A DNA stretch of 52,224 nucleotides, taken from positions 1 to 52,224 of the IMG/VR virus record IMGVR_UViG_3300025674_000061, one strand, 5' to 3'. The position numbers were made by a program, and so were the translations under genes. Under the pieces are notes generated by a model. That model was given only the letters and a program-made list of their open reading frames with translations. It made no database searches and was not told the DNA's origin. Numbering within the stretch: the stretch's first letter is position 1; every line of letters begins with the position of its first letter. Below, in pieces: positions 1,878 through 24,348 of this stretch. Source of the stretch: a virus (taxonomy: Duplodnaviria; Caudoviricetes).

Positions 1878-1985
1878 TAGTAAGTCCATCAGGGAAATGG
1901 TGGAGGTACTATTTCCTCGCCACCCTCAGGCGAGGATATGAGAGACGTGCTTTATACACCCTATAGGTCTCGGTTTGGGGTGTTA
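1878..1985 (-). ncRNA. Structured psbA leader, PhotoRC-II-like RNA motif
   Basis: Leader has a CACCC/GGGTG stem, potential GAGAC/GTCTC pseudoknot, hairpin TCCTCGCC-TGAGGGT-GGCGAGGA and a CCAT/ATGG stem. Position and look match the phage psbA PhotoRC-II motif as remembered. Confidence 0.7.
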
Positions 1986-2025
1986 CAAACGATTAGAAAT
2001 GTTTACATTCCTTAACCCGTTGACT

Positions 2026-18301: not shown

Positions 18302-18892
18302 CTATAGTGGTTGTTGTAAATTCAATGAATGAACCTGAACCTGTTGTGCAAGTAGGCCAATATCACATTGATACCATCCTGTAGCAATATACTTATCTTG
18401 CATAGGTGGATTTCCCCTATGTAAATGAGTAAATGACCCAGGCCAAATAACTACCTTACCCTTTTCGGGTTTAATTTTAGTACTTTGATATAAAAACTCT
18501 GTCTCTCCACCCTCTTCTACATCATTAAGATAGACCATCCATGCCAGTGTTCGAGTGCTTGTATTCCAATTCAAATCCTCACCATGAAAGACATGATATC
18601 CTTCAGTTGGTGCAGTTTTTTGGAGAAGTACCAAAGAACTGATGTAATTAAAATTGGAAAGATATGGATATTTTTTCGAATAATAAAGAAGACAACCGTT
18701 AACGGGGTCCATTAGATCTGCAGCTTCTCCAGGAGAGAATGCATTCAGACATACTTGTTTGTCATGTACATGTGATGCTTGTCTAGCATTCACATATGAA
18801 GAAGAGTCTATATAATCCACCAACCAGTCACAAAGTTCTGGATTTACAGCCTCTTTGAAGACTCCGATAAAATCGTTATAGATTGGTTCCAT
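18302..18892 (-). CDS. 2OG-Fe(II) oxygenase
   Basis: YHVFHGE, LAWMVYLNDVEEGGETEF, FTHLHRGNPP, KYIATGW. Confidence 0.92.
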   Translation of the reverse strand: MEPIYNDFIGVFKEAVNPELCDWLVDYIDSSSYVNARQASHVHDKQVCLNAFSPGEAADLMDPVNGCLLYYSKKYPYLSNFNYISSLVLLQKTAPTEGYHVFHGEDLNWNTSTRTLAWMVYLNDVEEGGETEFLYQSTKIKPEKGKVVIWPGSFTHLHRGNPPMQDKYIATGWYQCDIGLLAQQVQVHSLNLQQPL

Positions 18893-18907
18893 GTTTTCTG
18901 TAGGTTT

Positions 18908-18996
18908 GCAGGCTCGCCACCAATTCTTTGACTGGAAATTGGAAACCAGGCGGGGTTACCCCATCCGCACCACTTTGTTTTAGGAACAAAGAAACC
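18908..18996 (-). ncRNA. manA-like RNA, 3' half (modules C and D)
   Basis: Two paralogous units, GGTTT-CTTTGTT-CCTAA-AACAAAG-TGGTGCGG and GGTTT-CCAATT-TCCAGTCAAAG-AATTGG-TGGCGAG, separated by GGGG-TAA-CCCC. Matches my memory of cyanophage manA RNA. Confidence 0.7.
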
Positions 18997-19248
18997 TTAC
19001 CAAAAATCCAAAGGACATTTGGATGCGCTGAATCGCACTTTGTTTGAAAGATAACATCCGCAATCTGTACATCTATGTTCTACTTCATCATAAAACTGAC
19101 AGGTAGAACAAATTTGCAACCTAGCATCTTTCACATGATCAGGAACAAGTAAGTCACCAGTACTTACAAACTCTTTGATTATACCAAAAGCTGTTTTTGT
19201 TAGGTTGGCCATCTGCTTAGAAGCGGATGGGTATTGTTGATCTTCCAT
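18997..19248 (-). CDS. Small Cys-rich (CxxC..CxxCGC..CP) protein, DUF6171-like
   Basis: Start trimmed to MEDQQY; RLQICSTC...CTDCGC...SKCPLDFW. Confidence 0.75.
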   Translation of the reverse strand: MEDQQYPSASKQMANLTKTAFGIIKEFVSTGDLLVPDHVKDARLQICSTCQFYDEVEHRCTDCGCYLSNKVRFSASKCPLDFW

Positions 19249-19257
19249 AAGATTAAA

Positions 19258-19303
19258 GGGACACACTCCCGACCAGGGCACACTTAACGTCTGTCCGAGA
19301 CAT
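19258..19303 (-). ncRNA. manA-like RNA, module B
   Basis: Hairpin ATGTCT-CGGAC-AGACGT, then TAA, then GTGTGCCCTGGTC, then hairpin GGGA-GTGTG-TCCC. Confidence 0.6.
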
Positions 19304-19931
19304 GTACAAGATTTGTTCCATTCCCAATCTCCCCATAAACAAAGTAATTAAAAGCAATGGAGTACCTAGGTTCATCAGTTTCGGAGGCTGGAACCATGTG
19401 TGTTAGGTGGGAAGGAAACAAGAGTAACATATTAGTATTCACTCTCTTCAAATGAACTAATTCATTTTGAGCGGTTAACTCATCTAAATTAAATTCCCAA
19501 GCATCACTGGTCCAAGTAGGACCCATTCTCTTGAAAACAATTCCTGGCCCAGAATTGGGTGGAATATTTAGATAGTATACACCACTAAAGACACTGTTTG
19601 AATGATGATGTTCATGACAATAGTCATTCAAGTAGTGTCTGTTTGCCCATGAGTTAGTTCTCTTTACCGTAAGTTTTCTTGAAACTCGTAAGAAATCATG
19701 CACAAAAGCGTGCATATGATTATCTATGATAGTTGCAAGATTGGATAATGGATTGTGTGCAAGCACATCAAATACATCCAGATATTGTCCATTAGGATGA
19801 TCATGAATGTCAGTATCCGTAATCCAATCTAAATGTTCAACATAAGATTGGATTCTTGACCGTTCGTCATCAGAGATGTCTAGTTGGTCATGGTAAATTG
19901 GGGTTGGGAATAGTAATTGAACATCAGCCAT
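19284..19931 (-). CDS. Putative 2OG-Fe(II) oxygenase (TIGR02466-like)
   Basis: LFPTPIY, SWAN, HHHSNSVFSGVYYL, FPSHLTHMV, RYSIAFN. ATG at 19931 follows GGTGGAG. Confidence 0.88.
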   Translation of the reverse strand: MADVQLLFPTPIYHDQLDISDDERSRIQSYVEHLDWITDTDIHDHPNGQYLDVFDVLAHNPLSNLATIIDNHMHAFVHDFLRVSRKLTVKRTNSWANRHYLNDYCHEHHHSNSVFSGVYYLNIPPNSGPGIVFKRMGPTWTSDAWEFNLDELTAQNELVHLKRVNTNMLLLFPSHLTHMVPASETDEPRYSIAFNYFVYGEIGNGTNLVHVSDRR

Positions 19932-19969
19932 AGGCTCCACCAGGGTTTTTAACGACTCTCCATGTCGTA
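19926..19969 (-). ncRNA. manA-like RNA, module A
   Basis: Hairpin ACGAC-ATGGAGA-GTCGT, then TAA, then AAACCCTGGTGG, then hairpin AGCC-TAT-GGCT. Confidence 0.6.
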
Positions 19970-20200
19970 AGACACATCATCTTTGATATAACACGGTACA
20001 CGATCTGGATCTAACCATTTCGTATACTCAAAATCCTCCATAGCAGTGGTAAGTTGCATACCATTATCACAAAGATACATGTCACTGTATCGTTTGGTAT
20101 AAGAATCTGCCTTCTGAATACGATAGTCGGGGAACCCATTGTCTAGGGTTCCAACTTCGACATACCGATAGGGAAAACGTTCAAGAATAATCTTTGTCAA
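19949..20200 (-). CDS. Conserved cyanophage hypothetical protein
   Basis: ERFPYRYVE...PDYRIQK...DMYLCDNGMQ; coupled to the upstream ORF. Confidence 0.8.
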   Translation of the reverse strand: MTKIILERFPYRYVEVGTLDNGFPDYRIQKADSYTKRYSDMYLCDNGMQLTTAMEDFEYTKWLDPDRVPCYIKDDVSYDMESR

Positions 20201-20424
20201 GCGAGTACTCCTTCAGTTTGAAGATCAGCTGCAATCAAATCAAGGACGAGTTCATAATCATCGTCAGGATCATTATAAAACTGAACTCCTTGATTGCGGT
20301 AATACTTCACAATCTTTTTGTAAATCTTAGGGTGGCGGAGGTCTAGATCCGTTTCCCGATTCACTGCGGATTGCAGAAGACTCAAATTGGTCTTGAACTT
20401 AGAAACAAACGCCGAGTTAGACAT
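20197..20424 (-). CDS. Hypothetical protein
   Basis: ORF track; lies downstream of a sigma70 promoter. Confidence 0.75.
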   Translation of the reverse strand: MSNSAFVSKFKTNLSLLQSAVNRETDLDLRHPKIYKKIVKYYRNQGVQFYNDPDDDYELVLDLIAADLQTEGVLA

Positions 20425-20708: not shown

Positions 20709-20782
20709 TCGGAATGATAGGATTCGAACCTACGGCCACCCGCTCCCAAAGCGGGTGCTCTACCAAACTGAGCTACATTCCG
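20709..20782 (-). tRNA. tRNA-Pro(TGG)
   Basis: Cloverleaf; anticodon arm CCCGC-TTTGGGA-GCGGG; GTTCGAAT. Confidence 0.96.
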
Positions 20783-20796
20783 AAGAAGACCTAGTA

Positions 20797-20825
20797 ATAA
20801 TACTCGATTACTACTAGGTTGTCAA
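20797..20825 (-). promoter_or_regulatory. Sigma70-type promoter for tRNA-Pro
   Basis: TTGACA-17-TATTAT. Confidence 0.8.
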
Positions 20826-21488
20826 TTAACCGATTGGGGCTGAGTTTACTTTTTGATTGGACCAATTCCCAGATCCATCATCGATGGGTTTTGGTGCCGA
20901 GAGATCGATAGTAGAAGACTTCATAGATCCAGCAGCTTGAATTTCATTAACCTTCTTCAAATAAGCGATAACACTTTCGGGAGTGCTTTCGATATATGGA
21001 TCATCTTCAGCATTATGATGAGTGGAAGGATTAGCAGACTCTTCCATGAAGACGTGAGTTACAATAAGATCTTCTACATGAATAGCATATCTCCAAGATC
21101 TTAAACCAAGTCCTTTATTATACTTTTTGACAAGGAATCCTTCTGGTTCTGCAATACCAGAGACTTCATTATGTCTTGCAGTGAAAGCAGCATTACCATC
21201 ACAAAGATACTTTACGTTTTGAACCTTTAGTTGTTTCCACCAAGCCTTCATAACAAAAGGATCGTTGATAGAAAGACAGTATACTTCATCAATACCAAGT
21301 GCCTTGATATCATCATATGCTTCATCAAAGTCAGGAACTTGACTGTTGCTGCAGGTGGGAGTGAATGCACCTGGGATACAGAAAATGATTACATTTTTGC
21401 CCCTAAGAGTATCATGGAGTGCTTCTCTCTTTAGGGTATTCTTACTGTTGAGAGAGAATAACTCAGCATTAGGTAGTTGATAAGCCAT
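20826..21488 (-). CDS. Peroxiredoxin (Prx5/type II)
   Basis: PGAFTPTCS, SINDPFVMKAW, DGN, GLRSWRYA. Confidence 0.9.
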   Translation of the reverse strand: MAYQLPNAELFSLNSKNTLKREALHDTLRGKNVIIFCIPGAFTPTCSNSQVPDFDEAYDDIKALGIDEVYCLSINDPFVMKAWWKQLKVQNVKYLCDGNAAFTARHNEVSGIAEPEGFLVKKYNKGLGLRSWRYAIHVEDLIVTHVFMEESANPSTHHNAEDDPYIESTPESVIAYLKKVNEIQAAGSMKSSTIDLSAPKPIDDGSGNWSNQKVNSAPIG

Positions 21489-21527
21489 GTTAAATCAATA
21501 GGTCGTAAACGTTAATTATATATGCAC

Positions 21528-21740
21528 TTAAGCACGGGTATTTTGTGGTTGCCTAGACAGTTTTTTGTCGAGAAAACCCTCCATAGTATAACGGAGTTCA
21601 TGGTTTTCTGTCAAGACATAATAACCAGTAAGATCTTTGCCATCATCACACCACCCATAAGATACAATTCTCTCATTCACAAGATCATGTTTCCTGTCTG
21701 TGTTGAGATAGTGGTTGTAAAGCTGGTGCAGGTTGATCAT
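21528..21740 (-). CDS. Hypothetical protein
   Basis: ORF track; coupled to its neighbour. Confidence 0.7.
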   Translation of the reverse strand: MINLHQLYNHYLNTDRKHDLVNERIVSYGWCDDGKDLTGYYVLTENHELRYTMEGFLDKKLSRQPQNTRA

Positions 21741-21982
21741 CGTTCCTCAAAATCAAGTTTACGAACTTTGCGTTTGCGTCGTTCCTCTTGGTATTTTAGG
21801 TCACTTTCTGTCAGGAAACCATGATTTTTTATAATGTTTTTAGATTTGATTAAAACAACTTCATTCAAATCGTTTGCTGTGATCGTACTGTCAGTGACTG
21901 TCATCATGTTTGAACATCCACAGCTTTGCATTCTAGTTCCGCCAACAATTTCTTTGTTGCAACATTTACATCTGGCTATCAT
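21737..21982 (-). CDS. Small putative Zn-binding protein
   Basis: RCKCC...SCGC; basic C-terminus. Confidence 0.7.
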   Translation of the reverse strand: MIARCKCCNKEIVGGTRMQSCGCSNMMTVTDSTITANDLNEVVLIKSKNIIKNHGFLTESDLKYQEERRKRKVRKLDFEER

Positions 21983-22865
21983 TGTTTTTACCTTGTATTC
22001 CTAATACAAGTTCAAACTCTTTCAAGATACTTTCGTTGGGAAATTGTTCTTTTATATTACAATACTCCAACCATCTTAAGGTAGTTCTCATAGGTTCGGA
22101 TAAACCTTTGCCATAGAGTATTGTATTTGTCCTGTCTTCCAGAGTACAGAAAGTATGAACTATATTTTCCGATTCGTATCCGATGAAGTATTGAACTTCT
22201 TTTCTAGTCTTTAATAATTTATAAGATTGAAACTCTGTGCCATAAATTGAGTGGAATAGAGCGGCTATTTGTTCAATATCAGATCTACCATACTCCATAA
22301 TTAGATTGGCAACATTAATGGAGTGATCCATAAGACTACCATCCCCATGGGGTACTTTATGCATGTCAAGGTTTTCCATCCACTCAACATACTTTTTAGC
22401 AAGAGCTGGTTGTACCCTCTTATTTTTATTATAAAGAGCTACACTCAGAGTAACTCTCGGACCAGGAGCATGTGGTTCATGATAAGTTTCTACAGGCATG
22501 AATAGAGAGTCGCCTGGGTGCAATACACACGGTTCATCATTAACGAAATACCGCATCTTGCCAATTAATTGGATCAATTCAATATCATAAAAGTCATAAT
22601 GATTATCATGTGACTTAGCATGTCCAGAGAAAGAAACATAAAGATCTATATTATGAAGATCAACTTGATCACGTAGTTTCATTTGATCTACTACATTCAT
22701 AATAGAATCAGGAAGCCAAGACCCCTTTAATATAAAGGTAGGAGTTTTACCAGTAACGCCACTAATAATATCGTAGTCACCAGAAGAAAAATCTCTATTT
22801 ATTTTTTCTATTACATCATCCCAAGTTACTTGAGATACATCGTATGTTTTTTGAGTATATTGCAT
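21966..22865 (-). CDS. JmjC/cupin domain fused to a DUF6817/HD-like domain
   Basis: Start trimmed to MQYTQK. N-terminal HYD...PGD.LFMP..YH; C-terminal PH..SLMDH...ALFHSIYGTE. Confidence 0.7.
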   Translation of the reverse strand: MQYTQKTYDVSQVTWDDVIEKINRDFSSGDYDIISGVTGKTPTFILKGSWLPDSIMNVVDQMKLRDQVDLHNIDLYVSFSGHAKSHDNHYDFYDIELIQLIGKMRYFVNDEPCVLHPGDSLFMPVETYHEPHAPGPRVTLSVALYNKNKRVQPALAKKYVEWMENLDMHKVPHGDGSLMDHSINVANLIMEYGRSDIEQIAALFHSIYGTEFQSYKLLKTRKEVQYFIGYESENIVHTFCTLEDRTNTILYGKGLSEPMRTTLRWLEYCNIKEQFPNESILKEFELVLGIQGKNNDSQM

Positions 22866-22880
22866 ATCACTCTGTATGCA

Positions 22881-22952
22881 TGGGAGATACAAGGATCGAA
22901 CTTGTGACAATCTCGGTGTAAACGAGGTGCTCTACCGCTGAGCTAATCTCCC
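22881..22952 (-). tRNA. tRNA-Val(TAC)
   Basis: Cloverleaf; anticodon loop TTTACAC. Confidence 0.95.
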
Positions 22953-22955
22953 AAA

Positions 22956-23028
22956 CTCCTCCACCTGGGCTCGAACCAGGGACATTCTGATTAACAGTCA
23001 GACGCTCTACCGACTGAGCTATAGAGGA
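22956..23028 (-). tRNA. tRNA-Asn(GTT)
   Basis: Cloverleaf; anticodon loop CTGTTAA. Confidence 0.96.
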
Positions 23029-23055
23029 ATGGGTGTTTCTATTATAACACAGAAA

Positions 23056-23337
23056 CTAATCTTGTGGAAGCTCTTCTGGATTTTCTAACTCTAACTCATG
23101 AATTAGAGGAAGACATTCTTCTTGTGCAAGGTATGCTGCAGCTTTATAAAGATCTTCTTGATCCCAAACTTTATTTTTGTTTGCTTCCATCAAGATGTCG
23201 GGATCATCATAACATAGTGATGGAAGTTCGTCAAATGTAAATGGGATGTAATTTATAAAGTACATCTTAACGAGCAAGGTTTCCTCATAAGTCTCATACC
23301 AACAATAAGATGTTTGGATCCTGTACTTCTGGGACAT
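23056..23337 (-). CDS. Conserved cyanophage hypothetical protein
   Basis: Start trimmed to MSQKYRIQTSYCWY; VKMYFIN.IPFTFDE. Confidence 0.75.
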   Translation of the reverse strand: MSQKYRIQTSYCWYETYEETLLVKMYFINYIPFTFDELPSLCYDDPDILMEANKNKVWDQEDLYKAAAYLAQEECLPLIHELELENPEELPQD

Positions 23338-23373
23338 GTCTCGTTTTCCTGACACATTACTATTTAACCAGTA

Positions 23374-23445
23374 AGCGGGTGATCGGATTCGAACCGACGA
23401 CATTCAGCTTGGAAGGCTGACGTTCTACCACTGAACTACACCCGC
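23374..23445 (-). tRNA. tRNA-Gly(TCC)
   Basis: Cloverleaf; anticodon loop CTTCCAA. Confidence 0.96.
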
Positions 23446-23976
23446 ACCTAAAGATCCTAGATAAGCAATATTACCTGCCACCATAAATCTATTGTCTACA
23501 GGACATGGTTCTACTTTATGTATAAGATGTCCAGCAAATATAACCAGTTGACCTGATTCAACTTGAATTTCATTCCCATCAATAATGATTGGGGAACTTC
23601 CTTCTGGGCAGTTTACATAATATGCAAAAGACATTGCATAAGGCCAGTGGTTGTGTTCCATGGCGGAAGCACCTTTATTATACCACATTCCCCAGTAATC
23701 TGCAATATCAAAATTTCTATGCCAGTCTGGAGAACCAAAGTATGCACTATTAGATCCTTGTGCCAATTTATTTGCACAAGAAACTAGATTAGAACGAATC
23801 CAATCAAATAGTATATCCAATTCTTCAACTGGAGATTCTTCAAGTCTTGTGCAATAGAAAGGAGTTCTAGAAGTTCCTGTTGGAAGTGTAAGATAACTAT
23901 CAGATTTAATCCATTCTATTAGTCCAGGATTAATCTGATCTGCTTTTTCAAATTGGGTTGAAAGAATCGCAAACAT
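23425..23976 (-). CDS. Putative 2OG-Fe(II) oxygenase
   Basis: WGMWY, HNH, YYVNCPEGSSP, FAGHLIHKV, RFMVAGN. Confidence 0.85.
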   Translation of the reverse strand: MFAILSTQFEKADQINPGLIEWIKSDSYLTLPTGTSRTPFYCTRLEESPVEELDILFDWIRSNLVSCANKLAQGSNSAYFGSPDWHRNFDIADYWGMWYNKGASAMEHNHWPYAMSFAYYVNCPEGSSPIIIDGNEIQVESGQLVIFAGHLIHKVEPCPVDNRFMVAGNIAYLGSLGAGVVQW

Positions 23977-23977
23977 A

Positions 23978-24059
23978 TGTCGATGAAAGGACTTGAACCT
24001 TCATGAGTTGCCTCACTGGAACCTAAACCCAGCGCGTATACCAATTCCGCCACATCGAC
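23978..24059 (-). tRNA. tRNA-Leu(TAG)
   Basis: Cloverleaf with long variable arm; anticodon loop TTTAGGT. Confidence 0.95.
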
Positions 24060-24064
24060 GAAGG

Positions 24065-24138
24065 CGACTCAAGTAGGATTCGAACCTACGACCGACTGCT
24101 TAGAAGGCAGTTGCTCTATCCAGCTGAGCTATTGAGTC
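24065..24138 (-). tRNA. tRNA-Arg(TCT)
   Basis: Cloverleaf; anticodon loop CTTCTAA. Confidence 0.96.
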
Positions 24139-24146
24139 ATGGGACA

Positions 24147-24175
24147 ATCATACCAGAGACTGGTCAGATTGTCAA
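24147..24175 (-). promoter_or_regulatory. Sigma70-type promoter between tRNA-Ser and tRNA-Arg
   Basis: TTGACA-17-TATGAT. Confidence 0.8.
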
Positions 24176-24262
24176 CGGAGAGTGAGAGATTCGAACTCTC
24201 GAAGGAGTTACCCCCTTACAGCATTTCCAGTGCTGCGCCATCGTCCACTCGGCCAACTCTCC
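24176..24262 (-). tRNA. tRNA-Ser(GGA)
   Basis: Long variable arm; anticodon loop CTGGAAA. Confidence 0.95.
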
Positions 24263-24266
24263 AAGG

Positions 24267-24348
24267 TGGGCAGGGAGGGATTTGAACCCCCGTAGGCAGA
24301 GCCAGCGGATTTACAGTCCGCCTCCATTAACCACTCGGACACCTACCC
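24267..24348 (-). tRNA. tRNA-Tyr(GTA)
   Basis: Variable arm; anticodon loop CTGTAAA. Confidence 0.96.

Follow-up and report, generated by a model that had tools for sequence, protein, structure and literature searches.

A family of small, putatively pseudoknotted RNA modules linked to the wcaG RNA of T4-like cyanophages

The wcaG and manA RNAs are riboswitch candidates of T4-like cyanophages (Weinberg et al. 2010, PMC2864571), and wcaG RNAs lie before exopolysaccharide or high-light genes (PMC2864571). The two motifs have much in common: like wcaG, manA (RF01745) is an orphan riboswitch candidate of T4-like cyanophages and is often found among transfer RNA (tRNA) genes, and in phage S-CREM1 it lies 373 nucleotides (nt) from a wcaG RNA. 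No report of a ligand or mechanism was found in the papers located on the wcaG RNA, which has been a candidate since 2010. The Rfam wcaG model (RF01761) starts at GUUUC before the first hairpin, P1, and its consensus line, as given by cmscan, shows no pseudoknots; such pseudoknots may already have been drawn in the 2010 figures (PMC2864571). Among other sources, in so far as their text was available, RNAcop reported stabilising pairs in the 3' flank of wcaG and not modules on its 5' side (PMC4787817), PMC9964418 and PMC9602691 contain wcaG only as listed Rfam matches, and PMC10690425 catalogues over ten thousand viral RNA candidates that may include an equivalent of the element described below. 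Here we analyze a 1.06-kb region of the viral record IMGVR_UViG_3300025674_000061 (52,224 nt, hereafter the window). The window comprises the entire record, a fragment of a T4-like cyanomyovirus whose nearest named relatives are Synechococcus myoviruses. In the region studied, a complete wcaG RNA is preceded by two members of a family of short modules that we call X units. While the wcaG RNA is known, the X unit appears, judging from the sequences compared, to be a new and tightly linked accessory module that accompanies many cyanophage wcaG RNAs.

Several other systems provide points of comparison. The preQ1-I riboswitch has an architecture of about 35-38 nt, with a short stem, an A-rich third loop, loop-tail pairs and a Shine-Dalgarno-like element downstream. 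Arrays of the CsrB/RsmZ type consist of tandem short hairpins with GGA loops. The PeSL cassettes of T4-type phages, which Arbiol and colleagues are said to have described in 2010, reportedly comprise repeated structured intergenic modules flanking swappable small open reading frames (ORFs). In the main text of the literature located on cyanophage intergenic pseudoknots and the wcaG motif, figures and supplements aside, no description of the X unit was found.

A first-pass annotation of the region had recognized four RNA modules, A to D, and interpreted them as a single manA-like RNA divided by two complete protein-coding genes. The modules are present where that annotation placed them, on the minus strand throughout, and the genes between them are of the predicted kinds: a 215-amino-acid (aa) 2OG-Fe(II) oxygenase between A and B, and an 83-aa Cys-rich ORF between B and C. 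Their identity proved to be different. C and D are together one complete, contiguous and ordinary wcaG RNA, not manA, and the Rfam model recovers it from end to end (Table 1), although a covariance search had been expected to miss or truncate the RNA. The resemblance noticed between C and D is genuine, as C corresponds to hairpin P1 and D to hairpin P3 of the same RNA, both with the shape GGUUUC-hairpin-(G)UGG. With RF01761 this element shares three hairpins, linkers, phage type and gene context: it derives from a T4-like cyanophage and occupies the canonical position upstream of genes for a 2OG-Fe(II) oxygenase and a sugar epimerase, exopolysaccharide-type genes of which the epimerase is the type that gave the wcaG RNA its name.

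The search for manA gave no match at E<=10 in positions 18600-20300 or in the whole window (gathering score 55.2 bits), whereas the genuine manA of phage S-SSM7, used as a positive control with the same tools, scored 123.6 bits; no X unit was found at that manA locus. The same holds where nature has joined the modules. Locus L210 carries the contiguous array tRNA-X-X-wcaG, in which Rfam detects the wcaG RNA at 98.8 bits and the tRNA (E<=10), and neither manA nor any Rfam family over its two X units at the same threshold. The manA consensus is a contiguous multi-stem RNA of about 192 positions that does not resemble the order A-B-C-D and matches neither these modules nor fused arrays, so the segment order that the annotation had assigned to manA was mistaken.

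Modules A and B are true, paralogous members of the widespread X unit of about 38 nt. Model R2, made from 65 units of other loci with the two rows of a 93%-identical relative (locus L004) left out, finds both (Table 1), while its next-best match in the 52,224 bases, read on both strands, is partial and scores 12.2 bits; with model R1, A and B are the only full matches in the window. The paralogy of A and B claimed in the first-pass annotation is thereby confirmed. Neither A nor B is matched by any Rfam 15 family at E<=10. The 10-mer CCCTGGTSGR shared by the two was dropped as evidence, since it has 11 matches with at most one mismatch where 5.7 +/- 2.2 are expected.

A pattern derived from A and B, the stop-linker plus CCCTGGTNGG, matched at least 118 stretches when scanned over viral contigs, many of them cyanophage-like. 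In these contigs a variable hairpin comes directly after hairpin-UAA-CCCUGGU, and a wcaG RNA starts next. A second scan with a pattern for the wcaG core matched at least 120 stretches. Because both scans used exact-match patterns and yielded an incomplete set, the percentages derived from them describe the sample. In S-CAM1 (two), S-CREM1 (two) and S-RSM4 (one), X units that had no part in the model lie immediately 5' of wcaG and score 30.7-53.5 bits. Sf-FS3, which is included in the model, has two tandem X units about 760 nt upstream of wcaG, with ORFs in between, and Syn9 yielded nothing better than a degenerate look-alike, with no X unit at E<=1. Tandem X units also occur with no ORF around them.

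In total, 133 unique canonical X units were extracted, of which 67 were aligned (94% similarity cut, 41 columns). The consensus, AGUC-[N Y G G N N N]-GACU-(N)UAAA(A/C)-N2-4-(C)C-CUGGU(C/G)G(G/A)G, comprises a 4-base-pair stem, a 7-nt loop, the linker (N)UAAA(A/C) and then (C)CUGGU(C/G)G(G/A)G. Two further pairs connect the loop with the tail. Loop position 2 and the base 3 nt 5' of CUGG are C-G in 89 and U-A in 44 units (133/133). Loop position 5 and the base 4 nt 5' of CUGG are A-U in 27, G-C in 27, U-A in 14 and C-G in one of the units with a long spacer (69/69), and A-A in 64 units of the short-spacer class. In the 67-row alignment the first pair is CG in 42 rows and UA in 25 (67/67 standard), and the second is AU in 17, GC in 13 and UA in 6 (36/36, with 31 gaps). 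Neither pair was imposed by the extraction rule. Their covariation score was reached by none of 500 shuffles, a statistic that overstates independence because many loci are related, and slid registers pair in 16-35% of cells. One pair of the stem itself is U-A in 51, A-U in 14 and C-G in 2 rows, a covariation that arises partly by construction because the extraction rule required a stem; the loop GG was also partly a selection criterion, and S-RSM4 has GA there. These patterns suggest that the X unit is a small H-type pseudoknot with an A-rich third loop. Both A and B follow the loop-tail pairing rule, and between the window and L004 all three spacer bases beside the pairing bases of B differ, while the pairing bases themselves are unchanged.

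The X unit resembles preQ1-I riboswitches in form only, having a similar size and layout and a Shine-Dalgarno-like element downstream, but it has no Rfam match at E<=10, its conserved bases are others, and its two covarying pairs flank an unpaired GG. It is similar to the CsrB/RsmZ arrays in its tandem short hairpins with GGA in the loop, and differs in that the loop bases flanking the GG pair with the unit's own tail. Like PeSL cassettes, X units and wcaG RNAs are structured modules that flank small ORFs in plastic regions, with varied cargo in the same slot; unlike them, they show covariation of the RNA type and no promoter consensus. The Rfam wcaG model itself lacks the X units as well as the hairpin joining X to P1.

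Each of the two outer hairpins of the wcaG RNA is predicted to pair with the linker immediately on its 5' side, in a local pseudoknot that covaries. Among 105 unique wcaG RNAs, 95 have in the P1 loop a sequence complementary to the triplet before the UUU linker, against 70.4 +/- 3.1 with shuffled triplets (maximum 82 in 1,000 trials), and the pair types include AGG:CCU (28), GAG:CUC (22), UGG:CCA (8) and AAG:CUU (5). Similarly, in 60 of 62 the loop of P3 is complementary to the tetranucleotide that precedes its UUU linker, with pair types that include CUGG:CCAG (41), CCUG:CAGG (6), CUAG:CUAG (3), CAGG:CCUG (2), CGAG:CUCG (2) and CCAG:CUGG (1). In the window, the 5' strand of the first pseudoknot overlaps the stop codon of the Cys-rich ORF (18999-18997).

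These local pairs bear on the long-range kissing loops that the first-pass annotation had envisaged, citing the complementarities UGGAG/UUCCA, GGA/UCC and AAACC/GGUUU. The complementarities exist as letters but do not exceed chance: of 2,269 other same-strand 45-nt windows, 11.8% form a duplex with the wcaG RNA at least as stable as the best one of A and 21.8% one at least as stable as that of B, and mononucleotide shuffles reach the two energies in 17.9% and 92.4% of 1,000 trials, respectively. Since the CC-containing loop bases of P1 and P3 are used locally, with compensatory changes, long-range kissing is unlikely. The P1 loop varies with its adjacent triplet, not with the near-constant X loop, and a mutual-information scan of 46 fused arrays recovered only local helices, with no X-to-wcaG column pair covarying convincingly. 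A weak signal between X loop position 5 and a column in the P1 region (A-U 34, G-C 6, G-U 3, other 3; n=46) was set aside; short and long P1 loops are gapped at this place, and we read the signal, short of proof, as an effect of alignment and subfamily. Kissing between X units and the wcaG RNA is thus not supported.

What does connect the two elements is their position. X units occur almost exclusively within about 900 nt upstream of wcaG RNAs and on the same strand; in the window, B ends 268 nt and A 935 nt upstream of the wcaG RNA. The core scan gave 114 matches in loci L128-L241, which leave 91 non-redundant wcaG loci after removal of 8 with less than 500 nt of upstream sequence and 15 duplicates. 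The X unit is fused to wcaG in 42 of these, 63-130 nt away in 4 and 131-500 nt away in 30, and 15 have none within 500 nt. The layout with genes between modules is therefore a recurrent one, and in a pooled 104-locus sample the majority of the 131-500-nt distances fall at 270-309 nt. Elsewhere, only 3 X units were found in 1.89 million strand-bases. The converse was examined in 17 of the 44 X-bearing loci that lack a strict core match, and all 17 have a wcaG RNA above the Rfam gathering score; the apparent class of X units without wcaG was discarded as an artefact of the strict core pattern, which misses variant wcaG RNAs.

What separates a non-fused X unit from the wcaG RNA is a single small ORF or, less often, a larger ORF. 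In 77 unique contexts a non-fused X unit has an ORF start within 90 nt, and these contexts divide into a 75-84-aa membrane protein (35 contexts, with the wcaG signature after the ORF stop in 28 of 34), the MAxKGxAA family (13; 12 of 13), the MTPYELRF family (7; all 7), the Cys-rich family (6; 2 of 6) and others (16; 5 of 16). The layout 'X, one small ORF, wcaG' accordingly appears in 54 of the 76 assessable contexts, and at least four unrelated small-ORF families fill the same slot. Homologues of the Cys-rich ORF come after an X unit in Sf-FS3 and four other loci, and the layout 'CUGGUCGG + G-rich/C-rich + U-rich + AUG' precedes members of this family in 6 contexts. Among 197 unit contexts, counted with a detector that missed B, an ORF of at least 60 codons ends in the unit's own UAA in 48 and another unit lies upstream in 55; downstream there is an ORF in 77, a wcaG RNA in 56, another unit in 55 and something else in 9. 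The idea of a module set that tolerates genes is borne out in that the modules recur either adjacent to one another or separated by ORFs, but the genes would be ordinary cistrons rather than insertions into one fold.

The arrays are themselves variable. In L128, L149, L194 and L211 an X hairpin plus linker stands in place of P1, which makes X and P1-type hairpins interchangeable partners of the same UGGUGCGGAU-P2 core. Past P3 an array can continue with GUGGUGGA, a small hairpin and CCCC, then a GUUUC-type hairpin and UGGCGUGCAUG, as seen in L243 1570-1660 (S-RSM4) and several alignment rows; the Rfam wcaG model is one conserved section of longer modular arrays. X arrays begin within a few bases of a tRNA 3' end in L015 and L210, and wcaG-type arrays are followed by tRNA genes in L012, L018 and S-RSM4. 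A terminator-like hairpin with a U-run comes after the wcaG-type array in L013, L028 and L012, followed by the start of a GDP-mannose-dehydratase-like gene in L028 and by a tRNA gene in L012, so the 3' context of wcaG is not uniform. Two ORFs annotated as 'hypothetical protein' in published genomes lie over the wcaG RNA, gp208 of Syn9 (L242 1426-1584) and S-RSM4_042 (L243 1481-1594), and these calls are probably spurious. Other RNAs were observed in such regions: a 37-nt match to the abiF RNA (RF03085) lies among tRNA genes near wcaG in L015 (13624-13660) and S-CREM1 (L244 2258-2294), and matches to the tRNA-Sec model score 48.3 and 49 bits against a threshold of 47 in cyanophage tRNA clusters (L052 1308-1393 and L056 1083-1168).

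Table 1. Coordinates of RNA elements and genes in the region, in order along the minus strand
Feature	Position in window	Strand	Basis and details
83-aa ORF	19949-20200	minus	ORF listing; no Pfam family
X unit A	19934-19969	minus	model R2 45.9 bits, E 2.4e-11; model R1 46.5 bits
X unit A, stem CGAC/GUCG	19967-19964 with 19956-19953	minus	loop AUGGAGA 19963-19957
X unit A, linker UUAAAAACC		minus	contains UAA stop (19951-19949) of 83-aa ORF; then CUGGUGGAGC
X unit A, proposed loop-tail pair	U19962:A19946	minus	
Small hairpin after A (AGCC-UAU-GGCU)	19926-19938	minus	read from sequence
2OG-Fe(II) oxygenase gene, 215 aa, between A and B	19284-19931	minus	PF13759, 65.9 bits
X unit B	19267-19304	minus	model R2 36.5 bits, E 9.9e-9
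X unit B, stem UGUC/GACG	19302-19299 with 19291-19288	minus	loop UCGGACA 19298-19292
X unit B, linker		minus	contains UAA stop (19286-19284) of 215-aa oxygenase gene; then CUGGUCGGGA
X unit B, proposed loop-tail pairs	C19297:G19279 and A19294:U19280	minus	
Small hairpin after B (GGGA-GUGUG-UCCC)	19258-19270	minus	then UUUAAUCUU, then AUG of Cys-rich ORF
Cys-rich small ORF, 83 aa, between X unit B and wcaG RNA	18997-19248	minus	ORF listing
Complete wcaG RNA (RF01761)	18906-18999	minus	96.3 bits vs gathering score 42; model positions 1-98/98
wcaG RNA, hairpin P1	18991-18973	minus	
wcaG RNA, hairpin P2	18962-18952	minus	
wcaG RNA, hairpin P3	18942-18920	minus	
wcaG RNA, first predicted local pseudoknot	AGG 18997-18995	minus	with CCU in P1 loop
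wcaG RNA, second predicted local pseudoknot	CUGG 18949-18946 with CCAG 18935-18932	minus	CCAG in P3 loop
2OG-Fe(II) oxygenase gene, 196 aa	18302-18892	minus	PF13640, 44.1 bits
NAD-dependent sugar epimerase/dehydratase gene, 348 aa	17180-18226	minus	PF01370, 134.2 bits; PF16363, 100.6 bits

The 1.06-kb stretch is probably part of a minus-strand operon and not one split RNA. X unit A sits at the first gene junction, X unit B at the second and the wcaG RNA at the third. The 83-aa ORF has its last five codons and its stop within X unit A, and homologues of this ORF at many loci have ends (..VPCY.KD..SR*) that run into X units of other subtypes. The small hairpin after A contains the AUG (19931-19929) of the 215-aa oxygenase gene, with the GGAG of X unit A 3 nt ahead of it. 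L004 encodes a 94% identical counterpart of this oxygenase and was the single close locus when relatives were sought in viral contigs. The Cys-rich ORF has a weak match to DUF6171 (23.6 bits, under the cut-off of 27). A terminator-like hairpin follows the 196-aa oxygenase gene at 18289-18271, according to a consensus scan only, and a promoter scan of the region found 10 promoter-like sites where 9.9 were expected, which is chance frequency. Eight tRNA genes (window 20709-24348) lie on the same strand just upstream of the operon, and a complete PhotoRC-II RNA (RF01717, 80.2 bits), another cyanophage cis-regulatory motif, is found at window 1901-1995, also on the minus strand.

The first-pass annotation also raised the possibility of splicing or excision, and on this point RNA libraries are available. 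The stretch is present in seven metatranscriptomic runs, of which four were compared; the data are contigs only, which indicate presence and may include DNA carry-over. A collinear contig of 1,058 nt (18967-20024), identical in the four libraries, spans B and both genes, and no joints indicative of splicing or excision appear in the four contig sets, although contigs cannot exclude rare forms. These contigs argue against a major spliced form. Contig breaks fall within the wcaG RNA (18954-18996) and close to A (19977-20024) in all four assemblies, and the loose ends there read into other arrangements, including a fused X-hairpin-wcaG form, so variant layouts coexist in the same communities. One contig in each of the four sets has an extra base in the P2 loop at window position 18954; as L004 likewise has one additional base in that loop, this is a community variant. 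Contig depth upstream of wcaG is 3-6 times that downstream in the four libraries, a ratio that cannot rank genes and was not used as evidence.

Taking these observations together, the reading we favor, with a probability of about 50% given the facts presented and counting in the option of a shared factor or ligand, is that each module acts in cis at its own junction. In this view the three cistron junctions share a single family of small RNA modules that fold locally, and the genes between them would be ordinary cistrons in a recurrent 'slot'. Every module here overlaps the upstream stop and ends before the next AUG, A by about 4 nt, B by about 20 nt and the wcaG RNA by 14 nt. Because the modules overlap upstream stop codons, terminating ribosomes would unfold them, and a refolded module could then gate initiation or protect the RNA that lies downstream. 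All modules would probably answer to one shared factor or ligand through the invariant GG and UGGU elements. Several points weigh against this proposal. The cis-acting mechanism is one that we infer, and the tight linkage of X to wcaG, together with the recurrent slot, may argue for coupling rather than independence. The S-RSM4 array lies between an ORF and a tRNA gene, not before a protein gene; Syn9 has a promoter-like site, TTGACA-N17-TATAAT, between wcaG and the hli genes; and the arrays of L012, L013 and L028 are followed by the terminator-like hairpins mentioned above. Finally, selection rules imposed part of the hairpin covariation and of the loop GG, and as many loci are related the shuffle statistics overstate independence.

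The coupling just mentioned could mean that X units and the wcaG RNA are two ends of one device, bracketing a cargo ORF and acting together on the enclosed RNA. Such a device might protect a processed mRNA from decay that depends on its 5' or 3' end, or sense translation of the ORF, and extensive pairing between its ends would not be needed. The linkage in both directions (an X unit within 500 nt in 76 of 91 wcaG loci, 3 units elsewhere, 17 of 17 in the converse test) speaks for this possibility, as do the four unrelated small-ORF families between X and wcaG, the ability of an X hairpin plus linker to replace P1, and the arrays that often begin right after a tRNA gene (L015, L210), where processing would make a new 5' end. 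We nevertheless regard it as unlikely, given that 42 of 91 loci are fused without cargo, that no X-wcaG covariation is seen, and that common ancestry of one genome region among related cyanomyoviruses could account for the linkage. If true, the wcaG 'riboswitch candidate' has been studied as a truncated fragment, and the real unit is a modular pseudoknot array that brackets small cargo genes and perhaps helps exchange them.

Exchange could also be the main function at the level of DNA, with the modules serving as conserved flanks where co-infecting cyanophages recombine to swap small genes, much as PeSL cassettes reportedly do in T4-type phages. Different ORF families do occupy the same slot between conserved X and wcaG elements, and the RNA-library contigs break in the wcaG RNA and near A and read into other arrangements. 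Assembly alone, however, is expected to break contigs at conserved repeats, and compensatory changes in the stems and pseudoknots show selection on a folded single strand and not just on the identity of the sequence, so that we find this explanation rather improbable. Far less credible is the original proposal of one manA-like RNA whose four modules are joined by long-range kissing or processing. Short complementarities exist as letters and the modules do form a recurrent set, yet as manA the proposal is refuted by the absence of a match even where the modules are contiguous, P1 loops switch between CCU, CUC, CCA and CUU in step with the adjacent triplet rather than the X loop, duplex energies do not rise above background, and the RNA-library contigs contain no joints. 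The notion that A and B are ordinary gene junctions, each with a stop, a Shine-Dalgarno-like GGAG and a start, that are alike by chance is the least probable of all. Both do overlap a stop codon near a start codon, and the shared 10-mer is at chance frequency; this notion is refuted by model scores far above the background of at most 12.2 bits, by hundreds of related units with covarying pairs in other phages, and by tandem units without ORFs.

As the wcaG RNA is almost always accompanied by an upstream X unit and has covarying pseudoknots of its own, constructs for ligand screens, probing and structure determination should include these elements. The X-wcaG slot also offers a testable handle on how the plastic, tRNA-rich regions of cyanophage genomes organize, and perhaps exchange, their accessory genes.

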